This document shows positions 986 to 25,058 of a stretch of 32,000 nucleotides of DNA, piece by piece. The notes beneath the pieces were generated by a model. The model saw only the letters and a list, made by a program, of their open reading frames with translations, was not told where the DNA came from and made no database searches. Origin of the DNA: Moraxella nasovis (lineage in GTDB: Bacteria; Pseudomonadota; Gammaproteobacteria; Pseudomonadales; Moraxellaceae); assembly GCF_022701215.1 (NCBI RefSeq), contig NZ_CP089976.1, positions 120,001 to 152,000 on the forward strand, given 5' to 3'. Each line of letters begins with the position of its first letter. Position 1 is the stretch's first letter. The position numbers were made by a program, and so were the translations under genes.

Positions 986-998
986 ATTATCGCTACAA

Positions 999-8881: not shown

Positions 8882-9084
8882 TGTAATTTATTGATTAACT
8901 AAATTTGTTAAATAAAAGTTTTATAATCTACCGCATTTGACGTGTAGCATTTTATTTTGATATAGTTTTATCGCCATACATACTTTCATACATGGTGTTT
9001 TAGTTTAATATAATAATACTTCATGTTTCGTCTTGCTTGATTTTAGGCTATAATGGTCTGCATTTTGATTAAGGTTTTATTGAT

Positions 9085-9597: not shown

Positions 9598-9603
9598 AAA
9601 AAA

Positions 9604-9631
9604 TAAACCCCAATGAGCTGGGGTTTATTTT
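9604..9631. terminator. Rho-independent terminator between convergent apt and the permease gene
   Basis: TAAACCCCA (9604-9612) pairs with TGGGGTTTA (9619-9627) around a 6-nt loop. It is followed by TTTT and preceded by an A-run. Confidence 0.65.
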
Positions 9632-9646
9632 ATGGGTAAAAACATC

Positions 9647-10960: not shown

Positions 10961-11211
10961 AAAATCACACACCTTAAATACAAAAAGACGATCGCAAGAC
11001 CGTCTTGGTAGATGATAAGCCAGACGATCTGCCAAGCTTGCCATAAAATGGCGGTATTTTACCAAAATTTAGCGTTTTTTGATACATATTTGTAACACCA
11101 TTTTGTAACAACTGACACATTTGGTAATCATCAAAGCAATCTTTATGGTTTTATGATATAGTCAGCTTATCTTATCCACTAAATGACACAACACAACCAA
11201 AGATTATAGTT

Positions 11212-11712
11212 ATGAATAATACACACGAAACCATCTTTTTACCCACCTTTACTAGCACCATCGTCTCTGGTAATGCCAAAGACGGATTTCAAACCGTATC
11301 AAAAAGCCTAGCAGATTATGTCGCACAATCTGACAAGGGGTTAATTTTATACTTTTACCCAAAAGATAACACCGCAGGGTGCAGCACTCAAGCTACTGAT
11401 TTTAGCACACACTTACAAGCCTTATCTGACTTAGGTTATACGGTGCTTGGCGTCTCAAGGGACGGTATTGGCTCACACGAAAACTTCATCACCAAAAAAG
11501 AGTTGAGTATTCCCCTAATTAGCGATACTGACGAGATGCTTTGCCAGCATTTTGACGTTATTAAAGAAAAAATGATGTACGGTAAGACGCACTTAGGCAT
11601 TGTTCGTTCTACTTTTGTTTTTGATAAAACTGGCAACATGACACACAGCTTTAGAAATGTCAAAGCCAAAGAACATGTCGCCCACTTAATGACAGCTCTA
11701 ACAAAAGCATAA
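11212..11712 (+). CDS. bcp: Thiol peroxidase / peroxiredoxin Bcp
   Basis: 166-aa ORF with the peroxidatic Cys motif LYFYPKDNTAGCSTQA and Bcp-like length. Confidence 0.9.
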   Translation: MNNTHETIFLPTFTSTIVSGNAKDGFQTVSKSLADYVAQSDKGLILYFYPKDNTAGCSTQATDFSTHLQALSDLGYTVLGVSRDGIGSHENFITKKELSIPLISDTDEMLCQHFDVIKEKMMYGKTHLGIVRSTFVFDKTGNMTHSFRNVKAKEHVAHLMTALTKA

Positions 11713-11731
11713 TTAGTGCTTTACGATAGCC

Positions 11732-12940
11732 ATGAAAGTCTTACATCTATCTTCTTCGCTAAAGCATGATGAATCCGAGCGTGGCATCTACCCTATTACG
11801 CACGCTTTAATGAAAGCAGGTCATGAATCCATCGTGATTGGGGCTGCCGACCCAAGCGATGAATTGGTGTTGCGTTTTTTACGAGATGGCACACAGTATT
11901 ATCAGTTAGCCATGCCAAAAAAGTCATGGCTATCTTTACGTCATGTCTTTAAGCTTAGACAAATCATCGCCCACCAAAAGCCTGACATCGTTCACGTTCA
12001 CTCTCGCACGCCTGCTTGGGTATTGCATTGGGCATTACGCGCCATGCCGACTGAAGACAGACCGAAAATTGTGGCAATGTTTTATGGGTTTTATCCTTTA
12101 AATTCATACACAAAGGTTTTATTTGATGCCGATGTCATTATCACTGCATCACACAGCATTGATACCCACCTTAAAACAAAACTGGCAGCTAAAAAGCAAG
12201 AGCTTGGCGTGGATCGATGTGATTTTGATATTGTGGAGGTAAGGCGTGGCGTAGATGTGCGAAAATACCCCTACCGCCATCACTCATCTGTTCATTGGCT
12301 GCATTCTGTTTTTGCTCAGCATCCAGAGCTTGAGCATAAAAAATGGCTTATTTTCCCAACACCAATCGGTCACGAATACGGTCATGAATGGTTGATTGAC
12401 GTTTTAGGCAACTTACAAGATGATTATGATAACATTCACGCCATTATCATGGATGACGACTTTACCAATCTTAGCAGTCAAGATGTCAGCCATGAAGAAT
12501 TCGTCCAACGCCTAAATGCACTTAACCTTCGCCATCGAGTGACATTCATCGGTCGTAGACCCACCGACACCAAAGAGTGGCTCGCTTCTGCCAATGTCGT
12601 CTTATGCCTTGCCAATCGTCCAGAGAGTATTGGCATGACCGCCTTACAAGCCATTCATCTTGGAACACCTGTCATTGGTTGGGCGACAGGAGCAAGTGGC
12701 GATATTTTGACTAACCTTTACCCCCAAGGACTCATTAAACAAAAAAAAGCGATCGACTTATGTAAATCTGTGCGATATCATCTCACCAACCCCCTTCGTC
12801 CTGCTATGACGCACGAATATGTTGTAGAGCAGATGATTGCTGAGACTTTGGCAGTATATCAGTCGCTTATGCCAAATTGTAAGCTCGTCTATAAAGATAA
12901 GCACGACCATTTGGTATGTATAAAAGCAGAAAACGACTGA
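11732..12940 (+). CDS. Glycosyltransferase, GT-B fold (family 4-like)
   Basis: 402-aa ORF whose C-terminal half has the GT4-type donor-binding region ...NRPESIGMTALQAIHLGTPVIGWATGASGDIL (the E-x7-E position reads E-x7-Q). Acceptor and pathway are unknown. Confidence 0.7.
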   Translation: MKVLHLSSSLKHDESERGIYPITHALMKAGHESIVIGAADPSDELVLRFLRDGTQYYQLAMPKKSWLSLRHVFKLRQIIAHQKPDIVHVHSRTPAWVLHWALRAMPTEDRPKIVAMFYGFYPLNSYTKVLFDADVIITASHSIDTHLKTKLAAKKQELGVDRCDFDIVEVRRGVDVRKYPYRHHSSVHWLHSVFAQHPELEHKKWLIFPTPIGHEYGHEWLIDVLGNLQDDYDNIHAIIMDDDFTNLSSQDVSHEEFVQRLNALNLRHRVTFIGRRPTDTKEWLASANVVLCLANRPESIGMTALQAIHLGTPVIGWATGASGDILTNLYPQGLIKQKKAIDLCKSVRYHLTNPLRPAMTHEYVVEQMIAETLAVYQSLMPNCKLVYKDKHDHLVCIKAEND

Positions 12941-12967
12941 TATTCATCATACTTATGCCATCATAGT

Positions 12968-12990
12968 GCCGCACTTAGGCGGTTTTTTTA
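12968..12990 (+). terminator. Weak rho-independent terminator after the glycosyltransferase gene
   Basis: GCCGC (12968-12972) and GCGGT (12979-12983) form a 5-bp stem including one G-U pair, with a 6-nt loop, followed by T7. Confidence 0.45.
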
Positions 12991-13078
12991 TCGTCAAAAC
13001 TGTGTTAAAATCCAACAGAAAAACAAACCTATCTAATTTGTTTTTCATTGCTTTTACCCTCTTATTTTTGGAAAACCA

Positions 13079-14392
13079 ATGAAAAATTCCTCTTTCATCC
13101 ACCGATTTTTTAAATTATCACAAAATCACACAAACCCAAAGACAGAAATTATCGCAGGTATTACCACCTTTTTTACGATGGTTTATATCGTCTTTGTCAA
13201 TCCATCCATCTTAGGTGTCACTGGCATGGATACGCAAGTCGTCTTTGTGACTACTTGCTTAATTGCAGCCTTTGGTACGATAGCCATGGGGCTGTTTAGC
13301 AACCTGCCCATTGCTCTAGCCCCCGCCATGGGATTGAACGCCTTTTTTGCGTTCGTGGTGGTTTCTAAACTTGGCTATTCATGGCAAGTGGGTATGGGGA
13401 CTATATTTTGGGGGTCAGTTGGATTGTTTTTACTGACCATTTTTCAGGTTCGGTATTGGCTGATGACCAGTGTTCCGCTGTCGCTGCGTGTCGGCATAGG
13501 AGCTGGCATTGGGCTATTTATCGCACTGATTGGACTAAAAAATATGGGGCTTGTGGTGGCAAACGAAGCCACGCTTGTTACTGTTGGCAATTTACATTCA
13601 CCCACATTATTAATGGGCGTGCTTGGGTTTTTTATTATTGTCGTGATGGCGGCGATGGGACGACATTCAGGAGCTTTAGTTTCAATCATCATCGTTACCG
13701 CACTGGCATTAATGTTTGATGATAGTGTACAGCTTAGCGGACAAATTTTATCCATGCCGCCAAGTTTAAGCCCTGTTGTTGGTCAAGTGGATATTGCTGG
13801 AGCGTTTGATACTGCCTTGCTTGGTATTATCTTTTCATTCATGTTAGTAAACTTATTTGACTCATCTGGCACGCTCATCGCTGTTACCGATAAGGCAGGC
13901 ATTAGCGACGAACAAGGGCGATTTCCCAAGATGAAGCAGGCTTTGCTTGTAGATAGCACAAGTGCCATGGCAGGTTCATTTATGGGGACATCTGCCATCA
14001 GTACATATATTGAAAGTGGTGCTGGCGTGTCTGTTGGCGGTCGTACAGGTCTAACCGCTGTCGTGGTTGGTGTGTTATTTTTATGCACCATTTTTTTATC
14101 GCCATTGGCTGCCATCGTGCCAGCTTATGCCACCGCAGGTTCACTTGTATTTGTAGGCATTTTAATGACTTCAAGCCTTGTTAAAGTTGCTTGGGACGAT
14201 CTAACCGAAGCAGTACCCGCTTTCATCACCGCCGCTATGATGCCTTTTACCTATTCTATCACCGAAGGTATTGCTTTTGGTTTTATCAGCTACTGCATTA
14301 TGAAAGCTGCCACAGGTCGCCTAAAAGAGCTAAACGCCCCTGTTATCATTGTTGCCTTGCTGTTTTTGGTTAAATTTGCTTGGATTGGGTAA
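13079..14392 (+). CDS. NCS2-family purine permease (second AzgA-like paralog)
   Basis: 437-aa polytopic ORF with N-terminus TEIIAGITTFFTMVYIVFVNPSILG and C-terminal blocks ([29 protein letters not shown]) parallel to the 9647-10960 paralog. Confidence 0.9.
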   Translation: MKNSSFIHRFFKLSQNHTNPKTEIIAGITTFFTMVYIVFVNPSILGVTGMDTQVVFVTTCLIAAFGTIAMGLFSNLPIALAPAMGLNAFFAFVVVSKLGYSWQVGMGTIFWGSVGLFLLTIFQVRYWLMTSVPLSLRVGIGAGIGLFIALIGLKNMGLVVANEATLVTVGNLHSPTLLMGVLGFFIIVVMAAMGRHSGALVSIIIVTALALMFDDSVQLSGQILSMPPSLSPVVGQVDIAGAFDTALLGIIFSFMLVNLFDSSGTLIAVTDKAGISDEQGRFPKMKQALLVDSTSAMAGSFMGTSAISTYIESGAGVSVGGRTGLTAVVVGVLFLCTIFLSPLAAIVPAYATAGSLVFVGILMTSSLVKVAWDDLTEAVPAFITAAMMPFTYSITEGIAFGFISYCIMKAATGRLKELNAPVIIVALLFLVKFAWIG

Positions 14393-14407
14393 TTAGCTTA
14401 CCAAATA

Positions 14408-14432
14408 TAAACCCTGCAACTAGCAGGGTTTA
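14408..14432 (+). terminator. Rho-independent terminator after the second permease gene
   Basis: TAAACCCTGC (14408-14417) pairs with GCAGGGTTTA (14423-14432) around a 5-nt loop. The T-tail is imperfect (TTAATC). Confidence 0.55.
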
Positions 14433-14553
14433 TTAATCAGTTATTAAGATAACAGTTAGCCTGACAAATCTTACAACCAGCCATCTTTTTATACGTATCA
14501 AAGCAAGTTAATTGTAGCCATGCGATGAATTTGTCATAAAAAGTCATTTGCTA

Positions 14554-14575
14554 TTTTCTTGGTGTTTTCTTGGTG
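14554..14575. repeat. 11-bp perfect tandem duplication TTTTCTTGGTG x2
   Basis: 14554-14564 equals 14565-14575. It lies immediately 3' of the stop of the small minus-strand ORF at 14576-14734. Confidence 0.85.
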
Positions 14576-14734
14576 TTATTTCTTATCATGCTGATGGGCG
14601 ATTTGACTAATCTGTACCGCCTGCAAAAGACCCAATTCTTTAAATTCTTGACGCAATTTTTTGACCGCTTGCGTTTGGTCTTTGGTGTCTGCCAATATTT
14701 CAAGATAACGGCTGACATATTTGGTTTTATCCAT
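14576..14734 (-). CDS. Small hypothetical protein (52 aa), or the C-terminal part of a homopolymer-split ~84-aa membrane-anchored protein
   Basis: My translation is MDKTKYVSRYLEILADTKDQTQAVKKLRQEFKELGLLQAVQISQIAHQHDKK. The composition is helical and protein-like, unlike the overlapping K/R-rich 77-aa track ORF. It is below the track length cutoff. Confidence 0.35.
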   Translation of the reverse strand: MDKTKYVSRYLEILADTKDQTQAVKKLRQEFKELGLLQAVQISQIAHQHDKK

Positions 14735-14828
14735 TGCTTGCCATAAATTTTTTTAATTGCCGTCTTATGGCAAAATTTTGCCACGTCATCACAATGACAA
14801 CGCCTAACACCACATATTCATATTTCAT
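14727..14828 (-). CDS. Small hypothetical membrane peptide (33 aa), or the N-terminal part of the split gene
   Basis: AAAGGAT lies 6 nt upstream of the ATG at 14826-14828. My translation is MKYEYVVLGVVIVMTWQNFAIRRQLKKFMASNG. The frame ends 8 nt after the start of the 52-aa ORF (ATGGATAA overlap), and an A7 tract (T7 on the + strand, 14748-14754) lies just upstream of the junction. Confidence 0.3.
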   Translation of the reverse strand: MKYEYVVLGVVIVMTWQNFAIRRQLKKFMASNG

Positions 14829-14870
14829 ATTACTTATCCTTTAAAAATATCAAAACCCAACCAAAACCAT

Positions 14871-15680
14871 CTAAAACTGATACTTATCAAAGCGTATCGC
14901 ATCATTACTTATGCTTTGTGCTGGTGTTTGATTTGCCAAATAAGGGGCTAGTATTGGACGTTTGACAATCACTTTGCCGTTATCTGTTAATTGGTTTTGG
15001 GCAATGTGCAAAAATCGCATTTCATCATCAAGGCTTGGCGGATTTGCCAATTCATGCAAAACCTGCATATTTTTGCCCACTTTGGCGGTATAGCTGTCGC
15101 TTGGGAACATGGGGTCAAGATAAATCACATCGGCTTTTGGTAAATGTATCATAAAATCTTGATTTAAAAAATTAGCGTGATGAATCGTAATTCGGCTTAA
15201 TAATTTTTGCCAATTTGGGTTGTCATTCATCATCTGTTTTTCAAACAATAACAACAACGCAATCAATGGATTTTGTTCAATCAACACAACCTTTGCCCCA
15301 GTACTTGCCAAAATCAAACTGTCATGCCCAAAGCCTGCCGTGCCATCTATGACATTCATGCCATCGGTCAATTTGCACGCCTGCAAAATCAGCTCCGACT
15401 TTCGCCCTGCGGTAACGATACGTTTGGTAAGAGATTGCCAGTTTAGATGTGATTTGATTAAATTGCCATTATCTAGTTTTATCAAGGTTGGTGTATTTTT
15501 AACGATTGCAACGATGGTCGTATTTGGATTGTCATTGATAGTTGTCATGATAAATTTATCGGATAATTTGCTTAATGCGACAAATGATAAATCCAATGAC
15601 GAATCATGGCTGTTTTTGATCAGGTTTAATTTATCAAAGATGGTTTTGTCGTGATGTGTGCCGATGACTGCAATGTTCAT
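14871..15680 (-). CDS. rsmJ: 16S rRNA (guanine1516-N2)-methyltransferase RsmJ-like SAM-dependent methyltransferase
   Basis: 269-aa ORF with VIDGTAGFGHDSLILASTGAKVVLIEQNPLIALLL, matching the RsmJ (YhiQ) core VVDATAGLGRDAFVLAS...ERNP, plus the downstream DVIYLDPMFP motif. Confidence 0.82.
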   Translation of the reverse strand: MNIAVIGTHHDKTIFDKLNLIKNSHDSSLDLSFVALSKLSDKFIMTTINDNPNTTIVAIVKNTPTLIKLDNGNLIKSHLNWQSLTKRIVTAGRKSELILQACKLTDGMNVIDGTAGFGHDSLILASTGAKVVLIEQNPLIALLLLFEKQMMNDNPNWQKLLSRITIHHANFLNQDFMIHLPKADVIYLDPMFPSDSYTAKVGKNMQVLHELANPPSLDDEMRFLHIAQNQLTDNGKVIVKRPILAPYLANQTPAQSISNDAIRFDKYQF

Positions 15681-15707
15681 GTTTAAGCTTCATTTTAAGT
15701 TTTAATT

Positions 15708-16550
15708 TTAGCCTTGAAATTGATAACCAAACCCAAAATACGCAAGCAACACAAGCACGCCTGTGATGATACGTAGCCAAGCAAAAATCATAAAATCATG
15801 ACGAGACACCCAAGCCACCATCAACCGAATGCACAAAAGTGCCACCACAAAAGACACCAGCGTCCCTACGCCCAAAACCGCCCAATCTTGGGTGCTTTGT
15901 AGGCTGTCTTTTTTGTCTATGAGTTCAAGCAACCCTGCCCCCACGATGACAGGAATGCCCAAAAAGAACGAAAACTCAGTGGCAGCACGGCGAGACGCAC
16001 CCACCCACAACGCCCCAATGATGGTCGCCCCAGAACGGCTTGTGCCGGGGATTAGGGCAAGGCATTGAGCCAGTCCGATTTTTAGGGCGGTTTTGATGTC
16101 TATTTGTTCAGCTTCATGTGCGGTGATGGGGCTTGGGTGCTTTTCAACATAGATGATGAGCATTGCCCCGACAATGAGCATGGTCGCCACCACCAGTGGG
16201 TGAAACAACACACCTGTGATGTAGTCTTTGGCGGTAAAGCCGACAATCATGACAGGCAATGTGGCGATGATGAGTGAGACCCCAAGCCTGCGTGGATTGG
16301 CAAGACCTTCTGCCTTGCCTATGATTAGCCCCATCAAGGCGTGCCGCAGCCTACCCCAATAATCATAAATCACCGCCAAAATCGCCCCAAGCTGAATGAA
16401 GACAATGAATAAATCTTGCTTATCTTTATCCCAAAAATCTAAGATATCCGCCGATAAAATCAGATAGCCTGTGCTAGAAATCGGTAAAAACTCAGCAATG
16501 CCTTCTACAACGCCCATGATGATGGCTTTTAGAAATAAGATGATGTCCAT
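15708..16550 (-). CDS. uppP: Undecaprenyl-diphosphate phosphatase
   Basis: 280-aa polytopic ORF with BacA/UppP signatures GVVEGIAEFLPISSTGYL and LIPGTSRSGATI. Confidence 0.95.
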   Translation of the reverse strand: MDIILFLKAIIMGVVEGIAEFLPISSTGYLILSADILDFWDKDKQDLFIVFIQLGAILAVIYDYWGRLRHALMGLIIGKAEGLANPRRLGVSLIIATLPVMIVGFTAKDYITGVLFHPLVVATMLIVGAMLIIYVEKHPSPITAHEAEQIDIKTALKIGLAQCLALIPGTSRSGATIIGALWVGASRRAATEFSFFLGIPVIVGAGLLELIDKKDSLQSTQDWAVLGVGTLVSFVVALLCIRLMVAWVSRHDFMIFAWLRIITGVLVLLAYFGFGYQFQG

Positions 16551-16573
16551 GATAAGCTCTTTTTTATGTTATT

Positions 16574-16825
16574 TTAGTAATTGCAATAATAGGTAATGAT
16601 GTCGTCTAAGCCGTCTTGATGTTCATTCAGGATAATTTTAGATACAAGCATATTCGTAAATTGTTCAATATCGTCTTCGCTTTGAAATTTGTTCAAAAAT
16701 TCTGTATCATTCTCCAAATTATCAAAATAATACAAAATATCTTCACGAATGGTATCACCATAAGAACCATTCTTAAATTTTAAACATTCAAAAAATATGG
16801 CTTGTTTTTTACTAAAAGCTAACAT
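16574..16825 (-). CDS. Small acidic hypothetical protein (83 aa), translationally coupled to the upstream nuclease gene
   Basis: The start ATG (16823-16825) overlaps the nuclease stop TAG (16819-16821) in ATGTTAG. I count 16 D/E against 7 K/R. I recognise no family. Confidence 0.6.
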   Translation of the reverse strand: MLAFSKKQAIFFECLKFKNGSYGDTIREDILYYFDNLENDTEFLNKFQSEDDIEQFTNMLVSKIILNEHQDGLDDIITYYCNY

Positions 16826-17592
16826 ATTTCACGCTCTAAATGATATTCTTTAATAGGTTTGGATTGAAGAATCACTTCTTTAAAAGCCAGATTATTGACA
16901 GGATTATCAATCGTCAAAAATAGTGGGATATCATCTAAATTCATCACTAGGGTTAAAATATAATCATGCTTATATTCGCACGCTTTGATGTATTCATTTT
17001 CGGTTAATCGGATTTTACCTTTATTTTGGCGAACACCTTTAATTTCTGCTAAATAATTATTGGTATTGGTGCTAATTTGAAAATCATAACCATCACCAAA
17101 TAGCCTTGCATCTTCTAAAATGCCATTACCAAAAATCTCTATTGTACGGTAGTTATTGATAAAATATAGTTCAGCTTCCAACCCAGTCTCTTGCATTTTT
17201 TTAAATTTAGATTGGGTAATTGGTTCTATTTTGTCTGCAATTAACAAATCACTTACTGCATAATTATTTTTTAAAATAAGTTTTACAATATTAGCATAAT
17301 TGACCACATTTTCATGACCAAATAAACTATCAATCAAAATTTTGCGGTGTTCATAAACTTCCTTTTTCTGCCACCAACCTTGCCTGCCATTATCAAAATA
17401 AGGGTCAAATAAATCTTGGCGATTTTTAACTACGCTTTTGGTCTGCACAATGCCTAAATCTACAAAATATTGATAAAATTGCTCTTTGCTTTTACAGTTA
17501 AATTGTTTGATAAATTCATGATTAAATTTTGCTAAGCCGTAGCCTAGCAAATTTAACAATTCATAATGTTCGTGTTTATTGGCATTATTCAT
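16819..17592 (-). CDS. Putative restriction-type endonuclease, PD-(D/E)xK fold (DUF3883/NOV_C-like C-terminal domain)
   Basis: 257-aa ORF. The C-terminal half has the pattern E(AELYF)...GDGYDFQI-x11-AEIKGV...IRLTENEYIKA...YILTLV, typical of the DUF3883 nuclease core (GYD...E-x-K...NE). Its ATG overlaps the stop of the upstream methyltransferase fragment (ATGA), and it sits in an R-M context. Confidence 0.72.
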   Translation of the reverse strand: MNNANKHEHYELLNLLGYGLAKFNHEFIKQFNCKSKEQFYQYFVDLGIVQTKSVVKNRQDLFDPYFDNGRQGWWQKKEVYEHRKILIDSLFGHENVVNYANIVKLILKNNYAVSDLLIADKIEPITQSKFKKMQETGLEAELYFINNYRTIEIFGNGILEDARLFGDGYDFQISTNTNNYLAEIKGVRQNKGKIRLTENEYIKACEYKHDYILTLVMNLDDIPLFLTIDNPVNNLAFKEVILQSKPIKEYHLEREIC

Positions 17593-18017
17593 ATATAATT
17601 TAGCTTATTTTCCAAAATATCCAAAATTACTTTAAAGGTATTGCCTTTATCATGACTAACAAGATTTTTGACATTTTCCAAAAACACTACTTTTGGGCGG
17701 TGTTTTTCTATGATTTTTTCAATATCAAAAAACAGTGTGCCACGACTATCGGAAAAACCTTTTTGGTAGCCTGCAATAGAAAAGGCTTGGCAAGGAAACC
17801 CTGCACATAATATATCAAAATTTTGTGGAATTTTAGACTTAACTTCATCAAGTGTAATATCGCCAAACGGTACAATACCATGATTAGCAAAATACGTTTT
17901 TTGAGCATTACTATCTATCTCGCTAGCAAAAACACATTCGCCACCAAGCTCTTTTAAGGCAAAGTGAAAACCACCCACACCTGCAAACAAATCAATAAAA
18001 GTAAAATTTTTCATCAT
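17589..18017 (-). CDS. C5 DNA cytosine methyltransferase, N-terminal fragment only (motifs I-VI, M.HhaI-like)
   Basis: 142-aa ORF with motif I FIDLFAGVGGF, SEID, GDIT, motif IV GFPCQAFS (Cys codon 17790-17792), RGTLFF and motif VI ENVKN. It stops at ...ILENKLNYI, where M.HhaI reads MNELDYSF. Motif VIII, the TRD, and motifs IX and X are absent. Confidence 0.85.
   Translation of the reverse strand: MMKNFTFIDLFAGVGGFHFALKELGGECVFASEIDSNAQKTYFANHGIVPFGDITLDEVKSKIPQNFDILCAGFPCQAFSIAGYQKGFSDSRGTLFFDIEKIIEKHRPKVVFLENVKNLVSHDKGNTFKVILDILENKLNYI
17965..18017 (-). repeat. Direct repeat copy 1 (first 53 nt of the 142-aa methyltransferase ORF)
   Basis: 52/53 nt identical to 18835-18887 (offset 870 bp; single mismatch 17979 A vs 18849 G). 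Identity collapses to roughly half immediately outside. Confidence 0.9.
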
Positions 18018-18059
18018 CTTTTCTTCAAATAATTTTTTGATACCATATATAATAGTTGC

Positions 18060-18887
18060 TTAAAATTGAAATTTGGCATTTTCATTTCTCAGAGTTTGTT
18101 GAATTTGTTTGATAATAGCAACCAAAACATTGACCGCCACGCTATTGCCAAATTGTTGGTAGGCTTGCGATTGACTAGAAACAATTTTAAAATCATCACC
18201 AAAGCCCAAAATTCTAGCGCACTCGCGCGTAGATAATTTGCGTACAGTATCGCCTACTTTATAAAGTCCTGTTTTTGAGCCAACACCGCCACCATAAGCT
18301 GATAGCGTAATGGCGTGTCCTAAGGGGTGATAAATGCGTTCACCTTGTCCGCCTTTGCCAACTCTGCCGATTTGAATGGGTTTATTTGGCAAGATTTCTA
18401 AGCCAAACATATCAGATTGACCATCAATGGATCTGGTAAAAACAATGTCATCACGGTGGACAATTTTAGCAATAGGATTATTTTCCAAAAAGTCTTGCAA
18501 ACTTACCTGTTTATCGCTTGGTTTTGGAAAGGTAAACTCTTTGATATTTAAACCTTTATGAAAGCACACAAAATAAATCCGCTCACGATTTTGTGGTAAT
18601 TCAAAATCAGACGCATTTAAAATTTGATAATAAACATGATAATTAAGCTCATCTAAAATACTTAATACCGTTTTTAGCGTATTACCTTGATCATGCTGTG
18701 GAATGTCGTTCTCGTGAATGTCTGTGATATCGCCAAATGGTTCAATATGAAAATTCGCCTGATAAGTCTTTTGGGCGTGTTTATCCCATTCGGACGCAAA
18801 GACGCATTCTGCACCAAACTTGGACAATGCCAAATGAAAACCACCCACGCCTGCAAACAAATCAATAAAAGTAAAATTTTTCATCAT
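18060..18887 (-). CDS. C5 DNA cytosine methyltransferase homolog of M.HhaI (GCGC-type TRD) with in-frame loss of catalytic motifs IV-VI
   Basis: 275-aa ORF with motif I FIDLFAGVGGF, SEWD and GDIT. IPQHD then joins directly to QGNTLKTV, so PCQ and ENV are missing. After that come PQNRERIY (VIII), the TRD GKGGQGERIYHPLGHAITLSAYGGGVGSKTGLY (M.HhaI: GKGGQGERIYSTRGIAITLSAYGGGIFAKTGGY), RKLSTRECARILGF (IX) and QFGNSVAVNV (X). Confidence 0.85.
   Translation of the reverse strand: MMKNFTFIDLFAGVGGFHLALSKFGAECVFASEWDKHAQKTYQANFHIEPFGDITDIHENDIPQHDQGNTLKTVLSILDELNYHVYYQILNASDFELPQNRERIYFVCFHKGLNIKEFTFPKPSDKQVSLQDFLENNPIAKIVHRDDIVFTRSIDGQSDMFGLEILPNKPIQIGRVGKGGQGERIYHPLGHAITLSAYGGGVGSKTGLYKVGDTVRKLSTRECARILGFGDDFKIVSSQSQAYQQFGNSVAVNVLVAIIKQIQQTLRNENAKFQF
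18835..18887 (-). repeat. Direct repeat copy 2 (first 53 nt of the 275-aa methyltransferase ORF)
   Basis: 52/53 nt identical to 17965-18017. Both encode MMKNFTFIDLFAGVGGFH. Confidence 0.9.
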
Positions 18888-18899
18888 ATTTTAAATTTG

Positions 18900-19583
18900 C
18901 TACTTCTTGCCCTGCTCCGCTAGCGTCTTCCACGCATTGTTGCGTAGATACACAGGCAAGGCGTTTTCGGCAGTTACCGCCCTGCCGTCCAAAAACAGCG
19001 GATAGGCAAGGCGTGCGATATGACTTGCATTTGGGCGTATGTTTAGCTTTTTGGCATCAGCTTGAATCAAATCCACGCCATCACCTACCACCACATCACT
19101 TGCCACAACGCCATCATAATCTAATAAATACTCATCTTGGGCAATGATTTTGCCATCTTGGATAATAAAATCGCCTGCATAAACTTGGTTTTGGCGTGCG
19201 TCCATGACAGCGGTGATGGTCGTGCCATTTGGCAAATTTTCGCCATCATGTGCCATCAGTGCCAATGCCAAAAGACTAGATATGCCAATGCAAGGGGCAT
19301 CATTGGCGACCGATAACGCCTGCACAAGGGCGGTATTGATACGAATACCGCTAAACGCCCCTGGCCCACGATTAAACGCCCACGCTCCCACGTCCGACAC
19401 CGTTAGCCCCACACTTTGTAAGGCTTTGTCCAGCATCGGTAAAATAATCTCAGTCTGCCCACGCCCCCCTGCTACGGTCTTAGTGTACAGAATGTCGCCC
19501 TCTTGCAAAATGGCAATAGAGCATTGTTCAAAAATCGTATCAAAAGCGATGATGGTCGCTTTGTTTTTTGGGGTATTTGGCAT
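18900..19583 (-). CDS. tsaB: tRNA threonylcarbamoyladenosine biosynthesis protein TsaB
   Basis: 227-aa ORF with an ASKHA-fold TsaB pattern (IIAFDT...CSIAIL, AFNRGPGAFSGIRI) and TsaB-like length. Confidence 0.88.
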   Translation of the reverse strand: MPNTPKNKATIIAFDTIFEQCSIAILQEGDILYTKTVAGGRGQTEIILPMLDKALQSVGLTVSDVGAWAFNRGPGAFSGIRINTALVQALSVANDAPCIGISSLLALALMAHDGENLPNGTTITAVMDARQNQVYAGDFIIQDGKIIAQDEYLLDYDGVVASDVVVGDGVDLIQADAKKLNIRPNASHIARLAYPLFLDGRAVTAENALPVYLRNNAWKTLAEQGKK

Positions 19584-19597
19584 GGCTGTTATCGCCC

Positions 19598-19656
19598 AAT
19601 GGTTAAAGGTAGTTGAATGGTTAAAGGTAGTTGAAAATGGTCAAACATGGTCAAAC
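19598..19656. repeat. Two adjacent perfect tandem duplications upstream of tsaB (18 bp x2, then 10 bp x2)
   Basis: AATGGTTAAAGGTAGTTG at 19598-19615 and again at 19616-19633. ATGGTCAAAC at 19637-19646 and again at 19647-19656. All four units share ATGGT(T/C)AAA. Confidence 0.9.
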
Positions 19657-19690
19657 AACGAAAAACACCCAAACCCAGTTGGGTGTTTTG
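19657..19690 (-). terminator. Rho-independent terminator downstream of ffh
   Basis: AACACCCAA (19664-19672) pairs with TTGGGTGTT (19679-19687) around a 6-nt loop. On the minus strand the hairpin is followed by TTTTTCG. Confidence 0.65.
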
Positions 19691-19722
19691 TCGGTTTTGG
19701 GTCGTTTTGGTTGCCTTCATGA

Positions 19723-21258
19723 TTAAAAGCGTTTTTTAAAATTAGGAAATTGCCCCTCCATCTCCTGCATCTGCTTTTGCATCTCTTCCATGCTTGGCAT
19801 ATTGTTCGGATCAAGCCCCAAATCTGTCATGGATTTTCGCAGTTGGGTGGTGTCCATATTTGGCTGAGCCTGAGCCTGACCGCCAAACAAAGGACCGCCA
19901 GACATACCTTTGGTTAGCCCTTGTACCGCTTTCATCATTTTGCCAATGCCATCAGGACGGCTGATCATTTTCATCATTTTTGCCATTTGCTTGTGCTGTT
20001 TTAGCAGGCGGTTCACGTCTTGGATTTGCTTGCCAGAACCAGCAGCGATACGGCGTTTACGGCTTGGGGTGATTTTGTCAGGATTTTGACGCTCAAACGG
20101 TGTCATAGAGTGAATGAGTGCCTCCATCTCTTTGACCTTCTCCTCAGGTTTCGCCTCTTCCATCGCCTTTTGAATATCAGCACCACCCATACCCGGCATT
20201 TTATCCAAAAAGCCTGCCATACCGCCTAGACTTTTCATTTGCTCAAATTGATTGAGCAAATCATCTAAGTCAAACTCACCGCCTTTTTGTAGTTTTTTTG
20301 CCATGCGTTCGGCTTGTTCACGGTCAATTTTACTCTCCACCTCCTCAACCAATGACAGCACATCGCCCATACCCAATATACGCTGAGCGATACGTTCTGG
20401 GTGAAACAGTTCAAGTGCATCTAGCTTCTCGCCACGACCCAAAAACTTAATCGGCTTACCAGTGATCGCTTTTACAGACAATGCAGCACCGCCACGAGCA
20501 TCGCCATCGGTTTTGGTGAGAATCACACCTGTCAGTGGCAACGCATCATTAAACGCCTTGGCGGTATTGGCAGCGTCTTGACCTGTCATACTATCTACAA
20601 CAAACAAAATCTCAGCAGGATTGACCGCTGCTGCCAAGCCTTGAATCTCATCCATCATCTCATGGTCAACGTGCAATCGCCCTGCTGTATCAATGATCAA
20701 AATGTCTTGAAACTGCACCTTAGCCTGCTCTATGGCATGACGAGCAATGTCTATGGGTTTTTCGTTGCTATGCGATGGTACAAAACTTGCACCCACCTGA
20801 GAAGCGACCTGCTCCAACTGCTTGATGGCTGCTGGACGATAAACGTCCGCCGAGACCAACATGACTTTTTTCTTTTGTTTTTCGTGTAGGTATTTGGCAA
20901 GTTTGCCTGCGGTTGTTGTTTTGCCAGCACCTTGTAGACCTGCAAGCAGATAAACCATCGGCGGTTTGCCTGTCATCTGCAAGCCTTGATTGGCAGAACC
21001 CATCATCTCAGACAGCTCGTCATAGACGATTTTAACAAAGGCTTGACCCGGCTGTAATTCCTTTAACACATTTTGACCAAGGGCTTTTTCTTTGACTTTC
21101 GCAACAAACTCTCGGGCGACAGGCAAGGCAACGTCCGCTTCTAACAATGCCATACGCACTTCACGCAAGGTATCTTTGATGTTATCTTCATTCAAAGTCC
21201 CTGAGCCTGCAATATTTCGCAAACTACCAGACAATCGTTCGGTTAAAGTATCAAACAT
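19723..21258 (-). CDS. ffh: Signal recognition particle protein Ffh
   Basis: 511-aa ORF with an N-domain, the SRP54 GTPase motifs GLQGAGKTTT, DTAGR and TKTDGD, and a Met-rich M domain. The C-terminal Q/M-rich extension is longer than in E. coli. Confidence 0.97.
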   Translation of the reverse strand: MFDTLTERLSGSLRNIAGSGTLNEDNIKDTLREVRMALLEADVALPVAREFVAKVKEKALGQNVLKELQPGQAFVKIVYDELSEMMGSANQGLQMTGKPPMVYLLAGLQGAGKTTTAGKLAKYLHEKQKKKVMLVSADVYRPAAIKQLEQVASQVGASFVPSHSNEKPIDIARHAIEQAKVQFQDILIIDTAGRLHVDHEMMDEIQGLAAAVNPAEILFVVDSMTGQDAANTAKAFNDALPLTGVILTKTDGDARGGAALSVKAITGKPIKFLGRGEKLDALELFHPERIAQRILGMGDVLSLVEEVESKIDREQAERMAKKLQKGGEFDLDDLLNQFEQMKSLGGMAGFLDKMPGMGGADIQKAMEEAKPEEKVKEMEALIHSMTPFERQNPDKITPSRKRRIAAGSGKQIQDVNRLLKQHKQMAKMMKMISRPDGIGKMMKAVQGLTKGMSGGPLFGGQAQAQPNMDTTQLRKSMTDLGLDPNNMPSMEEMQKQMQEMEGQFPNFKKRF

Positions 21259-21426
21259 AATTATTCCAAAGTTAAATCATTTCAAAGTTAAATTTAAAAT
21301 CAAACAGCAAGACTGCTACAAATCCCCCCTATTTTATGATAAATTATGCAATTATGCCAATTTTAATTAAAAGTATGGGGAAAAATACGTCATTTGTGGC
21401 GTTTTTATCCAAATTTAGGGGTTGTT

Positions 21427-22218
21427 GTGCTAATTATTTATTTATTGACCGCATTGATTTACGCCATCACAGGTCTGACCTTATACCAAAAACTCATCAA
21501 ACAGCAACCCATCAATAAAACCGCTGTTATTTTGGTGTTATTGCTTGGGGCAGGATTGCACGGTCTTTTATTGTATCCACAAGTCATTACCTTGTATGGG
21601 CTAAATTTCAACATCTTTAATAGCATCAGTCTGATTAGCCTGTTTTTTTTGGTGTTTTTTGTGTTATTTAGCCTATATCGTCCAATTTTAAGTCTGGGCA
21701 TACTCGCTACACCCACCGCCTTGATTGGGCTGAGCATGGGGTATTTTGGGCGTGCCAGTTATGAACCTTTAACCCACCTAAGCCCCTTATTACAAATACA
21801 CATATTGCTTTCTTTTTCTGCGTACTGCGTGCTACTGATGGCAACCGTGCAAGCTGTCATTTTACGCCTACAAATCCGAGAGCTTAAACACAAGACCATA
21901 CACAGATTTTGGGTAAGCAAATTACCAAGCCTACAAAGCATGGAAAGCCTACTGTTTGACATGATATTGGTGGGTTTTGTGATTTTGAGCATTGCACTTG
22001 GGCTTGGCGTGGTTGCCACTTATAATATCATGGCACAGCACATCGCACATAAGCTATTTTTTAGTCTGCTGTCATGGCTTGTTTTTGGTATTTTTATTGT
22101 GGGTCATTATCGTCAAGGCTGGCGTGGAAAACGTGCGGCAAATTTTACCATCTATGGATTTATCCTGCTTGCCATTGGGTTTGTCGGTTCAAAAGCAGTA
22201 CTTACCTTGCTGACATAA
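21427..22218 (+). CDS. ypjD: Inner-membrane cytochrome c assembly family protein (YpjD/CcsA-like)
   Basis: Polytopic ORF divergent from ffh, as ypjD is in E. coli. The track ORF starts at a TTG (21394). The GTG at 21427, preceded by AGGGG, gives 263 aa. The start is uncertain. Confidence 0.75.
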   Translation: MLIIYLLTALIYAITGLTLYQKLIKQQPINKTAVILVLLLGAGLHGLLLYPQVITLYGLNFNIFNSISLISLFFLVFFVLFSLYRPILSLGILATPTALIGLSMGYFGRASYEPLTHLSPLLQIHILLSFSAYCVLLMATVQAVILRLQIRELKHKTIHRFWVSKLPSLQSMESLLFDMILVGFVILSIALGLGVVATYNIMAQHIAHKLFFSLLSWLVFGIFIVGHYRQGWRGKRAANFTIYGFILLAIGFVGSKAVLTLLT

Positions 22219-22315
22219 GTTTTGTTATTAGCGTTTTTATTTCATCGCTTGGGCACACCTTTATGTCTTTTGTAGGTCTTTGTTTTATATCTATCCGACA
22301 TCAATCCATCAAATC

Positions 22316-22340
22316 AAAAAGCCCAACTCAGGGCTTTTTT
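22316..22340. terminator. Bidirectional rho-independent terminator between the convergent ypjD-like and PepSY genes
   Basis: AAAAAGCCC (22316-22324) pairs with GGGCTTTTT (22331-22339) around a 6-nt loop, flanked by A and T runs. Confidence 0.65.
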
Positions 22341-22370
22341 GAATGATACTAGGTGCTTATCAAATATAAG

Positions 22371-22958
22371 TTAGTCATCGTATTTAACTTGGCTTTTTAA
22401 TATCGCACCGTTTGACGCATCTATCAAAATTTGATAAGGATAATCGCCGATGATGTCCACTTCGTATTTCGCCCCTGTGATTTCATGGTCCAAACTGATT
22501 TCACGCACCACACCCTTGCCTAGATTTTGGGCGATTGTCAATGCGTCTGCCAAACTTAGCTTGACATTTGGCAATACGTTTAGGTCATATTCTTTTTGGA
22601 TAGATAGTACTTCGCCTGTGCGAGCATCAATCCAAACTTGATATTCGTGCGTGGTGCTAATGGTCTCAATGGTATAAACCATCGCAGAAGCCGTAGCACT
22701 GTGTGCAATCAGCCCTTGTACTTCTAAATTCACCGCCCTACCGCCTGTCTTGGTCTCGGCGATGGCGACTGCCTTAGCAATGTCAAATAAGCCTTGCTTG
22801 CTTTGGATATTGGCATATTGACCCACAGGCTGAGTATTGATGTTGGCATTTGTGCTTAGGGCAGACTTAGTGGCAGGGGCGATGACCTGCTCACCATTAC
22901 TACACCCTGCCAAAATCGCAAGCGTCACGGTAGCGATGGTTAAGGTTTTTAATTTCAT
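22371..22958 (-). CDS. Lipoprotein with tandem PepSY-like domains
   Basis: 195-aa ORF with a signal peptide and lipobox (LAILAGCS). It has two repeated modules of the type ...AIA.....G..V.....E.....YEV.I (FDIAKAVAIAE...YTIE...YQVWIDARTGEVL and LADALTIAQ...GAKYEVDI...ILIDASNGAIL). Confidence 0.72.
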   Translation of the reverse strand: MKLKTLTIATVTLAILAGCSNGEQVIAPATKSALSTNANINTQPVGQYANIQSKQGLFDIAKAVAIAETKTGGRAVNLEVQGLIAHSATASAMVYTIETISTTHEYQVWIDARTGEVLSIQKEYDLNVLPNVKLSLADALTIAQNLGKGVVREISLDHEITGAKYEVDIIGDYPYQILIDASNGAILKSQVKYDD

Positions 22959-23316
22959 GATTGGTCTCCAATATGGATTGGGTGAATTTGGTATGTTTAA
23001 TTTACCTAATAGCTTGGGTTGTCTTAGATTTGGATTGTTAATGAAATGCTATCACCAAGTTTTCTATTTGGATTAAAGATTATCAAATAAAGTCAAGGTG
23101 CTAAACAATACTAACCATCTTACCACTTGTTTACTCAAGTGTCTATGACAACCTAAAATACTTAGGATAAAATAAGACAACAAAAGAGCAACTGTTTTAA
23201 CCGCTGTTTTTAACTGCCAATTACCAACAATCGCCCAAACAGACAAAACCATCTGGTCGATTGATAGAATATTGACGTAAAATTTGCTGGTTGTTTATCC
23301 GATGAGATGTGCGTTT

Positions 23317-24168
23317 TTAGATACCAGCTTCTTTTTCGGCAGCTTCTACCGTTTGGCGAATGAGTGTATTGATGGTCATTGGACCTACGCCACCTGGTAC
23401 TGGCGTGTACGCAGATGCAATATTTTCAATACCATCAAGCTCAATATCGCCACAGCCCCCTGTATCGCTTGGGTGAAATCCTGCATCAACAACGACAGCA
23501 CCTGACTTAATCCAGTCTTTTTTGATGAGTTCTGGCACGCCCACCGCACCGATGACAATGTCTGCTTGGCGGATATGCTCTTCAAGATTTTGTGTGCGTG
23601 AATGGCAAATGGTAACGGTGCAATTGGCATTAAGTAGCATAGCTGCCATCGGCTTGCCCAAAATCGCACTACGCCCCACCACCACAGCGTGCTTGCCAGA
23701 CAGATTGATGTCATAATGTGCCAACAGGTGCATGATGCCTTGGGGTGTACAAGAGCCATAAGCAGACTCACCCATCGCCATACGCCCATAGCCAAGACAG
23801 GTAACGCCGTCCACATCTTTGGCAAGGCGGATCTGATCAAAACAAGCACGCTCATCAATTTGTGCTGGCACAGGGTGTTGTAGTAAGATGCCATGAACAT
23901 CAGGATTGGCGTTCAATTCATCAATCTTTGCCAATAGCTCCTTGGTGGTTGTCTCACTTGGCATCTCCACACGAATGCTGTCCATGCCGATTCGCTTGCA
24001 AGCATTGCCCTTCATACGCACATAAGTTGCACTGGCAGGGTCATCACCCACCAAAATGGTCGCCAAAATCGGCGTGCGTCCTGTTTTTTGTTTTAAGGTT
24101 GCCACTCGTGCCGACAGTTCATTTTCAATAGAACTTGCCAATGCTTTACCGTCTAATATCTGTGCCAC
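23317..24168 (-). CDS. folD: Bifunctional methylenetetrahydrofolate dehydrogenase/methenyl-THF cyclohydrolase
   Basis: 283-aa ORF with a GTG start preceded by AAGGGGG. It has [25 protein letters not shown], the Rossmann [11 protein letters not shown] and the C-terminal [11 protein letters not shown]. Confidence 0.95.
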
Positions 24169-24266
24169 ACTTACCCCCTTTTGGTTTTGTCAATAAAATA
24201 TAAAAAAGGCGTTAATTTTATCATACCATTAGAATTTTTGAAAATTTCACGCTATTACTGGTTGAT

Positions 24267-24971
24267 TTATGGCGATTTTTTAACCTTACCGAACTGCCAG
24301 TTATACAGCTGTTGCAAATTCTGATCGCCTGCCACCAACTCGATTTTCATCTGCTGTGGTGTGAAGTCTTTTGGCATGATAAAACGCCCTTGAATCTTAG
24401 CAACCCCATCAATCTGATAGCTAGACGGCTCAAGCGGAATCTGCACCATGCTGGTTGAGTTTAACAAGGTAAGCTTAGGTATCATGCGTGCTGCTTGACC
24501 ATTTACATCGACCATAGCCACATCAAAGCGGTACTCATACGCATCGCCTTCTAAAGGTTCAATGTGTGCCGATAAGATTTTAAGGGCAATGCCACCATGC
24601 TCAGCAGCAGATGATTTTAGGATGTCATTTAACTGTTGGAGCTGGGCATTTTTAGCTTGCAAAGCGTCATAATTTGCCTGAAGCTGGTATAAATTAGTCG
24701 ATGTAATATCACGTTCTTGGGTGATTTGGCTAACTTGCAGACGAAGTTGATTATTATCTGCACGAAGCTTAGCAGCGTCTTCAGCACTCAGATGAGCACC
24801 ATCTGTCTTCATCGCTGCTGTTACGTTATGAGCCCCTTGTCTAAAGCCTACTTTATAACCAATCACCGCAACGACAGCACATGAAAATAATAATGCCGCC
24901 AAAAACAGTGCTATGATTTGACCGATCGCACCTTGATAAATGATAGAGTTTTTTAGGTTCTTAGCTAACAT
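24267..24971 (-). CDS. Hypothetical membrane-anchored coiled-coil protein
   Basis: 234-aa ORF with one N-terminal TM helix (IIALFLAALLFSCAVVAVIGY), then a heptad-like Q/L-rich segment (LRADNNQLRLQVSQITQERD...LQANYDALQAKNAQLQQLNDILK) and a beta-rich C-terminal domain. I cannot assign a family from sequence alone. Confidence 0.65.
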   Translation of the reverse strand: MLAKNLKNSIIYQGAIGQIIALFLAALLFSCAVVAVIGYKVGFRQGAHNVTAAMKTDGAHLSAEDAAKLRADNNQLRLQVSQITQERDITSTNLYQLQANYDALQAKNAQLQQLNDILKSSAAEHGGIALKILSAHIEPLEGDAYEYRFDVAMVDVNGQAARMIPKLTLLNSTSMVQIPLEPSSYQIDGVAKIQGRFIMPKDFTPQQMKIELVAGDQNLQQLYNWQFGKVKKSP

Positions 24972-25058
24972 AGAAATATTGAGTTACTGTAAAATGGCGA
25001 CATTATAGCAAATACTGCTCTAGTATTAATGAAATTTTTACACTCAAACACAAAAATA

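Follow-up and report, generated by a model that had tools for sequence, protein, structure and literature searches.

A probable composite restriction-modification island in Moraxella nasovis and its recurrent nuclease and small-protein module, usually found without a working methylase

Introduction

Restriction systems normally lose their endonuclease first, since the cell dies once the nuclease is left unaccompanied by its methylase. In this study, we analyzed a stretch of 32,000 nucleotides (nt) of Moraxella nasovis (contig NZ_CP089976.1, positions 120,001 to 152,000; hereafter the window, the positions of which are used below), in which a segment of about 2.3 kb between the core genes tsaB and uppP carries two C5-methylase pieces (M275 and M142), a predicted nuclease (R257), and a small acidic protein (p83). 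Among the relatives of this nuclease the reverse pattern recurs in two phyla: the methylase has been eroded by at least 12 different deletions, and the nuclease and its coupled small protein stay under selection.

Several described systems are close to parts of this segment. The HhaI/HinP1I systems, which are specific for GCGC (M.HhaI, PDB 1MHT family; R-HINP1I, PF11463), share with it the methylase family of M275, the R.HinP1I-paired relatives of M275, and the stub of a HinP1I-type gene; they differ in that M275 is without motifs IV-VI, the HinP1I-type gene is deleted, and R257 has no detectable likeness, by sequence or profile, to R.HhaI or R.HinP1I. C5-methylases can also work in two pieces: fragment complementation has been documented for M.HhaI, M.BspRI, M.BsuRI, and M.SssI, and M.AquI and M.EcoHK31I are natural two-subunit enzymes (PMC3404938). 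Like the split enzymes (M.AquI, M.EcoHK31I, and bisected M.HhaI and M.SssI), M142 and M275 are two adjacent open reading frames (ORFs) that jointly carry all ten motifs, whereas their split point between motifs VI and VIII, their duplicated motifs I-III, and their mixed ancestry match no known functional split.

The DUF3883 family, to which R257 belongs, is a known PD-(D/E)xK family (PMC3424549) and provides the catalytic domain of YenY4I and McaZI, enzymes dependent on 5-methylcytosine (5mC) or 5-hydroxymethylcytosine (5hmC) (PMC6765204). R257 shares with these two the PF13020 catalytic domain and an often solitary or defence-island setting; however, they are 600-amino acid (aa) fusions with PUA and/or DUF3427 readers, whereas R257 has 257 aa, a helical N-terminus, and an ancestral operon with a C5-methylase. 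Solitary restriction endonuclease genes (Ershova et al. 2012, PMC3488263) likewise encode an intact restriction-derived nuclease without a linked functional methylase. There the cases are sporadic, whereas in R257 the pattern is family-wide and is accompanied by a coupled small ORF and by repeated independent methylase truncations. Type II toxin-antitoxin and nuclease-immunity pairs resemble R257-p83 in being compact, overlapping two-gene cassettes among housekeeping genes with interchangeable, unrelated small acidic partners; R257-p83 differs in that the putative toxin comes first, some members are partnerless, and no homology to a known family is seen. According to Kobayashi and co-workers, restriction-modification units reportedly behave as mobile elements that are inserted without mobility genes in naturally competent bacteria. 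The segment is like such units in its ORF-precise intergenic insertion, without integrase, transposase, or tRNA and with a short direct repeat at the ends, and we found no obvious difference. The insertion itself is thus ordinary for restriction-modification units in naturally competent bacteria; the unusual part is a nuclease and small-protein pair that outlives the methylase in many lineages.

Results and discussion

A composite island between tsaB and uppP

The gap between tsaB and uppP was filled with four co-directional minus-strand ORFs of 275, 142, 257, and 83 aa. The genes of this region are as follows.

18900..19583, minus strand: tsaB, core gene upstream of the island; Pfam TsaD, orthologues 45-76% identical in 28 loci
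18060..18887, minus strand: M275, 275 aa; Pfam PF00145
17589..18017, minus strand: M142, 142 aa; Pfam PF00145, profile positions 1-132
16819..17592, minus strand: R257, 257 aa; Pfam PF13020 over residues 141-226
16574..16825, minus strand: p83, 83 aa; locus tag LU293_00725; no Pfam family
15708..16550, minus strand: uppP (BacA), core gene downstream of the island; Pfam BacA, E=1e-79

M142 and R257 were coupled by an ATGA overlap at 17589-17592, and R257 and p83 by a 7-nt overlap at 16819-16825. Both overlaps, the filling of the gap by the four ORFs, and the flanking spacers of 12 and 23 nt had been described in the initial annotation, and all were found again on re-reading the sequence. The same annotation had estimated by eye that the island is poorer in G+C than its neighbours. 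Indeed, the G+C content was 32% in the segment versus 49% in the flanks, and windowed values were 0.28-0.40 within the island and 0.44-0.54 in tsaB and uppP. By gene, the values were 0.373 for M275, 0.326 for M142, 0.300 for R257, and 0.274 for p83, against 0.491 for tsaB and 0.485 for uppP; likewise, G+C at third codon positions was 0.23-0.31 in the island genes and 0.50-0.54 in tsaB and uppP. The content was of the defence type, as had been proposed: PF00145 was matched twice, R257 matched the nuclease family PF13020, and p83 was acidic, with an isoelectric point (pI) of 4.24. As for the two C5-methyltransferase pieces, the assignment of both to PF00145 stood; they are, however, members of two lineages (M142 is 65% identical to the M275 lineage over the shared N-terminus) and not the halves of one gene.

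Subsequently, the junction was compared among relatives. One genome per species was scanned with TsaB, which gave 28 Moraxella/Psychrobacter loci, 27 of them reaching beyond tsaB. In all of these 27, tsaB, uppP, and rsmJ were contiguous, with a spacer of 27-642 nt, and none of these loci contained any of the four island genes. The island is therefore an insertion and the four genes are not ancestral at this site. Together with the foreign composition, the empty sites bear out the earlier view of a horizontally acquired island, derived from restriction-modification genes and without visible mobility genes. That view is refined in two respects: ten codons of a deleted HinP1I-type endonuclease gene are left in the island as a stub, and the nuclease and small protein of the island form a module that recurs widely, for the most part without a working methylase. 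For anatomy and history together, it is highly probable that the segment is a composite restriction-modification island that was acquired horizontally and has partly decayed.

R257 and its homologues

R257 matched PF13020 (NOV_C/DUF3883) with a score of 54.6 bits against a gathering cut-off of 22.1. In an alignment of 15 homologues, residues D161, D167/D170, E183, and K185 were invariant, and R257 kept all 87 invariant columns. In the AlphaFold 2 model, a helical N-terminal region (residues about 1-135, low confidence) was followed by a beta-rich alpha/beta C-terminal domain. The fold matches of this domain in PDB were weak and non-significant (SwaI, the SPARDA nuclease domain, and Hjc; best E=0.014). 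Residues 1-135 gave no Pfam match even at E<=1, and modification-sensing domains (SRA, PUA/EVE, DUF3427, winged helix) were not found in R257 by Pfam. R257 is accordingly described here as a predicted nuclease, an apparently intact two-domain protein with a PD-(D/E)xK domain, which places an endonuclease with an intact catalytic fold next to the methylase pieces.

Other assignments of R257 were rejected. As a relative of R.HhaI or R.HinP1I, it showed no PDB sequence match, no profile match, and an hhalign probability of 0.7%, which left a weak tblastn similarity to HinP1I-like proteins unsupported. In known defence systems, R257 and p83 gave only weak PADLOC matches to the C-terminal DUF3883 region of TmtA, no PADLOC restriction model matched R257, and NCBIfam and PHROGs gave nothing. 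A phage or plasmid origin was also rejected, with no phage match and a single distant plasmid match at 25% identity.

R257 had 1959 homologues, and an all-against-all hidden Markov model (HMM) search at E<=1e-3 gave 621 clusters at 50% identity. The full-length matches in these clusters were almost all standalone proteins of about 245-275 aa; many other matches were short fragments. The survey of gene neighbourhoods covered 77 distinct nuclease sequences (that of the window and 76 others from other Moraxella and from metagenome contigs, several of the latter of Bacteroidota); a metagenome scan contributed 80 loci. The nuclease was intact in 75 of the 77, and the homologues in other Moraxella were 77-85% identical to R257. 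In Moraxella sp. K23 and at L030, a methylase fragment, the nuclease, and an overlapping 82-aa ORF lay in this order between a PrmB-like methyltransferase gene and aroC; at L029 the nuclease occupied the same place without a methylase fragment. The same fragment-nuclease-small ORF order was found between tauE and coaBC (L033) and, in Weeksellaceae, after ksgA and before a NUDIX gene (L036), where the homologues were 66-68% identical. At L040, a homologue between valS and GmrSD had a methylase fragment with stops and no p83. These layouts show that the nuclease and the small ORF are a conserved core present at many chromosomal sites in Moraxella and Bacteroidota.

The methyltransferase of 366-388 aa at L029 and L030 was considered as a replacement DNA methylase and rejected; it is of the MTS/NPPY type, stands ahead of aroC in both genomes, and is most likely a housekeeping PrmB/rRNA-type enzyme. 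Defence-type neighbours of nuclease homologues included a solitary RE_NgoFVII_C protein (L036-L039, 6347-7165), GmrSD (L040, 6135-8219), and a fusion of a response regulator and Mrr_cat (L071, 39-947). At L098 (1878-3728), a DUF2075/Schlafen-type helicase stood beside the nuclease homologue, which echoes the McaZI neighbourhood (PMC6765204).

The small partner and selection on the pair

The predicted model of p83 consisted of five helices at a predicted local distance difference test (pLDDT) score of 71, and p83 had no match in any family or fold library searched. A word-index search for its homologues gave two proteins, and the family was recovered from the ORFs of the fetched loci. At the 77 distinct loci, the ORF overlapping the nuclease stop codon belonged to the p83 family of acidic helical proteins at 46 and encoded an unrelated Cys4 Zn-ribbon protein of 57-73 aa at 13; the median pI was about 4.3-4.4 for both types. 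Zn-ribbon partners of 63-73 aa occurred at L051, L055, L057, L062, L072, L080, L082, L083, and L087, and the nucleases there were 86-91% identical to acidic-paired ones.

The ratio of nonsynonymous to synonymous substitution rates (dN/dS) of the nuclease was 0.04-0.16 in close pairs that were both without a functional methylase (a single alignment), and that of p83 was 0.09-0.42, pointing to faster evolution than in the nuclease. These ratios indicate purifying selection on the nuclease, also at loci whose upstream methylase has been shortened or lost.

Methylase remnants upstream of the nuclease

M142 contained motifs I-VI with PCQ and ENV and was without motifs VIII-X and the recognition domain. 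Over residues 2-135 it shared 86% identity with a fragment of 141 aa from Moraxella sp. K23, and it carried the lineage signatures IPQxFD and LExKLxY in common with L065 and L093. These features place M142, as a 5' remnant, in a second C5-methylase lineage, whose native position is upstream of the DUF3883 nuclease. Motifs IV and VI were present in M142 and not in M275, neither ORF had the full set, and no other C5-methylase was found in the window. Judged by its motifs, the island encodes no complete or functional methylase.

The upstream remnants at the other loci were compared with two local HMMs, built from HhaI-type methylases and from the lineage that natively precedes the nuclease, respectively. 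A full methylase was clear only at L067, 1 of about 60 informative loci; the others had remnants or none, and more than half of the informative loci across phyla were without a complete methylase within 4 kb. The remnants showed at least 12 distinct deletion end points. In the coordinates of the HhaI-type HMM they covered 3-77, 5-80, 5-98, 4-106, 5-110, 5-112, 3-135/139, 5-176, 5-207, and 5-82+270-294, and others consisted of the N-terminal extension alone or the C-terminal tail alone. Where no remnant was left, the upstream neighbours were housekeeping genes, for example anmK, groEL, polA, dnaE, hisS, and the methylmalonyl-CoA mutase gene. Many junctions retained the last codons of the methylase ORF (..KLVA-stop or ..YMQAS-stop) directly ahead of the nuclease start, so that the deletions were mostly internal and spared the 5' end of the operon and the translation-initiation region of the nuclease. 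The ancestral order was a translationally coupled methylase-nuclease operon. The linkage to a functional methylase that marks type II systems was thus not found across the homologues, and since the nuclease pair recurs without a working methylase, it is probably not an ordinary restriction-modification system.

A fixed-site, homing-type insertion into methylase genes was rejected, as the junctions vary and most remnants are internal deletions keeping the 5' end. The native upstream methylase lineage (L036, L049, L051, L065, L070, L073, and L096) had a conserved N-terminal extension of 93 aa with no Pfam match. Its ORF ended (..LYMQAS-stop) exactly at the expected start of motif X, and motif X was found nowhere in the ORF. 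A circular permutation, with motif X moved into the 93-aa extension, was rejected because no significant match was obtained. At three loci, C-terminal methylase pieces comprising the recognition domain and the motif IX region were rearranged, being observed downstream and not upstream of the nuclease or the small ORF (L105:2275-2376, L112:5026-5322, and L113:962-1141).

Unit 1, a wrecked HinP1I/HhaI-type system

M275 and the stub behind it constitute unit 1 of the island, and M142, R257, and p83 constitute unit 2. M275 aligned with M.HhaI (E=1e-75) in two blocks, HhaI residues 11-73 and 123-321, and residues 74-122 were missing. The gap extends from the catalytic Pro-Cys (PCQ, motif IV) to ENV (motif VI), so that motifs IV-VI are gone and the frame is kept. 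Motifs I-III and VIII-X were retained, together with the HhaI-type recognition domain, whose two loops (GKGGQGERIY...TLSAYGGG) lie in the second block. The same two-block alignment was obtained with the PF00145 profile (1 to about 60 and 117-323) and with the custom HhaI-type HMM (2-67 and 120-325). Among the best 120 matches, the other 119 homologues had 308-361 aa; accordingly, the deletion is specific to the M. nasovis genome. The nearest intact relative was P0122 (locus L045), 88% identical in aligned columns, in which the absent stretch of about 156 nt (52 codons) is flanked by CAYGAT (His-Asp) repeats, CACGAT and CACGAT/AAA. The methylase of unit 1 would have lost PCQ and ENV by an in-frame deletion of 52 codons between the two His-Asp codon repeats.

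The ORF following P0122 at L045 matched Pfam R-HINP1I at 26 bits, and another relative, P0123, was paired with R-HINP1I between lspA and uvrC. The DNA homology between the window and L045 extended beyond the M275 stop codon through ATGCCA..TAAGCAACT, from 18079 to about 18050, and then ended. This homology stops after about ten endonuclease codons, which indicates that the HinP1I-type endonuclease gene was deleted. The features concerned are listed below.

18690..18695, minus strand: CATGAT (His-Asp), deletion scar in M275; a single repeat copy is left versus two in L045
18014..18079, minus strand: 21-codon stub ORF MPNFNFKQLLYMVSKNYLKKR followed by a stop codon; overlap with the 3' end of M275 on one side and, through its stop, with the M142 start on the other; the first approximately ten codons derive from the beginning of a HinP1I-type endonuclease gene
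about 18045-18052, minus strand: junction of unit 1 and unit 2, at the end of the DNA homology to L045

Of a HhaI/HinP1I system, the methylase is thus recognizable in M275 and the endonuclease only as the 10-codon stub. The alignments show unit 1 to be the wreck of a HinP1I/HhaI-type (GCGC) system with a crippled methylase and a lost endonuclease gene.

A comparable junction was found at L067. An intact HhaI-type methylase was followed by a 19-codon R.HinP1I-type stub (..GSYTAKGGFQNE) running directly into the start of the DUF3883 nuclease, so that the GCGC methylase lay 57 nt upstream of an intact nuclease. With the window, L067 is the second independent locus at which a DUF3883 nuclease stands in place of a HinP1I-type endonuclease gene. 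This double replacement suggests that the DUF3883 nuclease either substitutes functionally, being compatible with GCGC methylation, or has repeatedly invaded the HinP1I-type gene.

The first 57 nt of M275 (18831-18887) differed from those of M142 (17961-18017) at 3 positions and from L045 at 7. A direct repeat, D1, of 170 nt was 76% identical overall. Gene conversion between the tandem paralogues M275 and M142 is possible on this pattern.

Control of the nuclease

Something besides a methylase in cis must, we infer, restrain R257. The small partner is the best candidate because it is near-universal, translationally coupled, acidic, and interchangeable. Of the marks of a toxin-antitoxin pair, overlap and co-occurrence were present in R257-p83, and neutralization is a candidate activity; neither protein was homologous to known toxin or antitoxin families. 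Unit 2 is a mobile operon composed of a C5-methylase 5' remnant, an intact DUF3883 nuclease, and an overlapping small acidic protein. R257 is probably type-II-like by ancestry, because it is operonic with a C5-methylase and was swapped into GCGC systems. We tentatively propose, at somewhat less than an even chance, that R257 is a type-II-like enzyme of an uncharacterized family that was first paired with a C5-methylase and was twice swapped into HinP1I-type GCGC systems, and that its coupled small partner restrains or regulates it. Restraint of this kind would let the pair outlive methylase loss, acting as a nuclease-inhibitor (toxin-antitoxin-like) defence or addiction module. Blended into a single best explanation, the well-founded anatomy and history and the more tentative mode of control come out evenly balanced between right and wrong.

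If the small protein does restrain the nuclease, the pair would be a natural case of a restriction enzyme converted to a toxin-antitoxin-like module. It would also give a testable function to the uncharacterized standalone DUF3883 proteins, with their 621 clusters at 50% identity.

Several points weigh against this proposal. Binding or inhibition of R257 by p83 is itself only a proposal. About 10 of about 65 informative loci had an apparently intact nuclease and no overlapping small ORF (e.g. L040, L047/48, L105, L114, and L115), which speaks against the small ORF as an essential antitoxin. The analysis covered 32 kb, and a GCGC methylase encoded elsewhere in the M. nasovis genome, unlinked to the island, could shield the host. 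R257 could also bear an inactivating substitution invisible to sequence analysis. Furthermore, the dN/dS was 0.06 between M142 and the K23 fragment and 0.03-0.2 in both halves of a 196-aa ORF among Weeksellaceae alleles sharing one truncation, and the model does not account for such low values in methylase remnants. Between L036 and L038, the nuclease and p89 genes were 100% identical and the upstream 190 nt 99.5% identical, whereas the methylase fragment differed at 25 of 309 nt (8%), mostly synonymously. Identical nucleases beside methylase parts that differ by 8% indicate mosaic recombination inside the truncated gene, which may have imported the low dN/dS signal from functional methylase alleles. 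A three-part version of the module, which would be a previously undescribed defence or addiction module derived from a restriction system, appears improbable. In this version, purifying selection would maintain a non-catalytic S-adenosylmethionine-binding methylase fragment in a regulatory or sensory role, an interchangeable small inhibitor (acidic helical or Zn-ribbon) and not DNA methylation would control the nuclease, and the whole would spread by replacing the endonuclease genes of resident HinP1I-type systems.

The rival that survives best is a separated type II system, in which R257 is an ordinary GCGC-type enzyme, an unlinked methylase protects the host, the island methylases are redundant and decaying, and p83 is an accessory. 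R257-family genes stand directly behind HhaI/HinP1I-type methylases at two independent loci, intact in L067, the ancestral operon has a methylase upstream, and a GCGC methylase occurs beside lspA in other Moraxella. Solitary restriction endonucleases with distant methylases have been documented (57/272; PMC3488263). The absence of a complete methylase within 4 kb at more than half of the loci is, however, unusual for type II. No second HhaI-like methylase of M. nasovis appeared among the best 120 homologues, a list too short to exclude one.

Palindrome counts bear on this rival from both sides. In the core of the window (1-16550 and 18900-32000), the observed and Markov-expected counts were 2/110 for GGCC, 5/91 for GCGC, 7/49 for CGCG, 5/30 for CCGG, 31/136 for GATC, and 21/71 for TCGA, which suggests long exposure to several restriction specificities. 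GCGC was similarly avoided in M. lacunata, M. bovis, and M. nonliquefaciens, in line with a long-standing GCGC restriction pressure on the clade. The depletion of GCGC/CGCG was bimodal within Moraxella: M. lacunata, M. equi, M. caprae, M. bovis, and M. nonliquefaciens had 0-2 sites per 12 kb versus about 40 expected, and M. bovoculi, M. caviae, and M. osloensis were near expectation; GGCC was depleted in all examined Moraxella. Many nuclease-bearing contigs showed no GCGC avoidance, e.g. K23 (62/54), L040 (83/74), L060 (28/28), and L117 (20/15). As a marker of R257 specificity, GCGC avoidance was therefore rejected: it is common to island-free relatives and missing from many nuclease contigs, and so reflects clade history. 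On balance, we consider the separated type II system unlikely.

An inert relic, in which nothing in the island functions in M. nasovis, not even R257 and p83, and disruption is yet to come, would agree with the dead unit 1, the lack of a methylase in cis, and decayed members elsewhere, such as L040 with its interrupted fragment and L047/48, both of these without p83. It is nevertheless improbable, as R257 keeps all the invariant columns including the catalytic D/E/K, both overlaps persist, the ORFs of R257 and p83 are uninterrupted, and purifying selection acts on the family in lineages without a methylase.

R257 might instead be a type IV enzyme directed against 5mC-modified DNA. Such an enzyme would need no methylase and would not tolerate C5-methylases next to it, which would explain both the two dead methylases of the island and the recurrent methylase loss. 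DUF3883 is catalytic in the 5mC/5hmC-dependent YenY4I and McaZI (PMC6765204), most family members are solitary, the two C5-methylases next to R257 have both been inactivated, and the L098 homologue adjoins a DUF2075/SLFN-type helicase as McaZI does. In contrast, no reader domain for modified DNA was found, residues 1-135 match no Pfam family and are predicted to be all-helical, L067 has its intact GCGC methylase so close upstream of an intact nuclease, and the ancestral operon was translationally coupled, all of which makes a type IV enzyme very unlikely. Finally, although M142 and M275 jointly hold every motif in intact frames, it is hardly credible that they form an active GCGC methylase and thereby shield the host against R257, since known productive splits lie between motif VIII and the recognition domain and not between VI and VIII inside the catalytic sheet (PMC3404938), the pieces come from two lineages with motifs I-III duplicated, an M142-type fragment occurs without an M275-type partner in K23 and L033, and the M275 deletion is unique to the M. 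nasovis genome.

Insertion site and expression

The ends of the island were examined against the relatives. The following features were found at the two junctions.

18888..18899, minus strand: left 12-nt spacer CAAATTTAAAAT; core, not island; it resembles the sequence after the tsaB stop in relatives of the M. lacunata/bovis group (TTAACCAATTTTAAAATGAAAT...)
16551..16573, minus strand: right 23-nt spacer AAAATAACATAAAAAAGAGCTTATC; core ribosome-binding region of uppP; it matches AAAATAACAAAAAAGAGAACATTT of M. caviae and ..AAATAAAGAGTAATATT of other species
18888..18893, minus strand: TAAAAT, left copy of a 6-bp direct repeat at the island edge
16571..16576, minus strand: TAAAAT, right copy; it overlaps the p83 stop codon

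The best match to the 23 nt was the ribosome-binding region of M. caviae uppP. Since the spacers on both sides are core sequence, the foreign DNA spans from the first start codon to the last stop codon. The initial annotation had seen no integrase, transposase, tRNA target, or terminal inverted repeats, and our scans agree: the segment contained no integrase or transposase ORF, the window contained no tRNA, and the island ends carried no meaningful inverted repeat. Of the features of an integrase- or transposase-mobilized genomic island, only the 6-bp TAAAAT direct repeat was present at the ends. The repeat is possibly a target duplication or microhomology, and chance is also possible in AT-rich DNA. 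Excision of the island with one TAAAAT copy would give a 32-nt spacer resembling those of L014 and L015. Integration probably occurred by illegitimate or homology-facilitated recombination following natural transformation.

Among the loci scanned with TsaB, L023 (BMPS01000030.1) is labelled Streptomyces cinereus JCM 3040. Its G+C content of 45% and its tsaB-uppP-rsmJ layout and coordinates were those of the Moraxella osloensis loci, and it is therefore probably a contaminant contig.

A strong, bidirectional terminator-like hairpin with an 11-bp stem was found at 19662-19689, between ffh and tsaB and upstream of the latter, which would insulate the tsaB-island-uppP string from ffh transcription. 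On the minus strand from tsaB to uppP, the sole terminator-like match was a weak 5-bp stem inside R257 (16982-16965), and a scan gave a few weak promoter-like matches. Only 23 nt of native sequence were left ahead of uppP. As this leader is the ribosome-binding region and the terminator-like match is only weak, read-through into uppP from tsaB or from island-internal promoters is plausible and is the simplest reading of the sequence. Transcription probably enters the island from tsaB and continues into uppP. In M. nasovis, the core cell-wall gene uppP no longer has its own upstream region, and it probably relies on transcription through foreign DNA.

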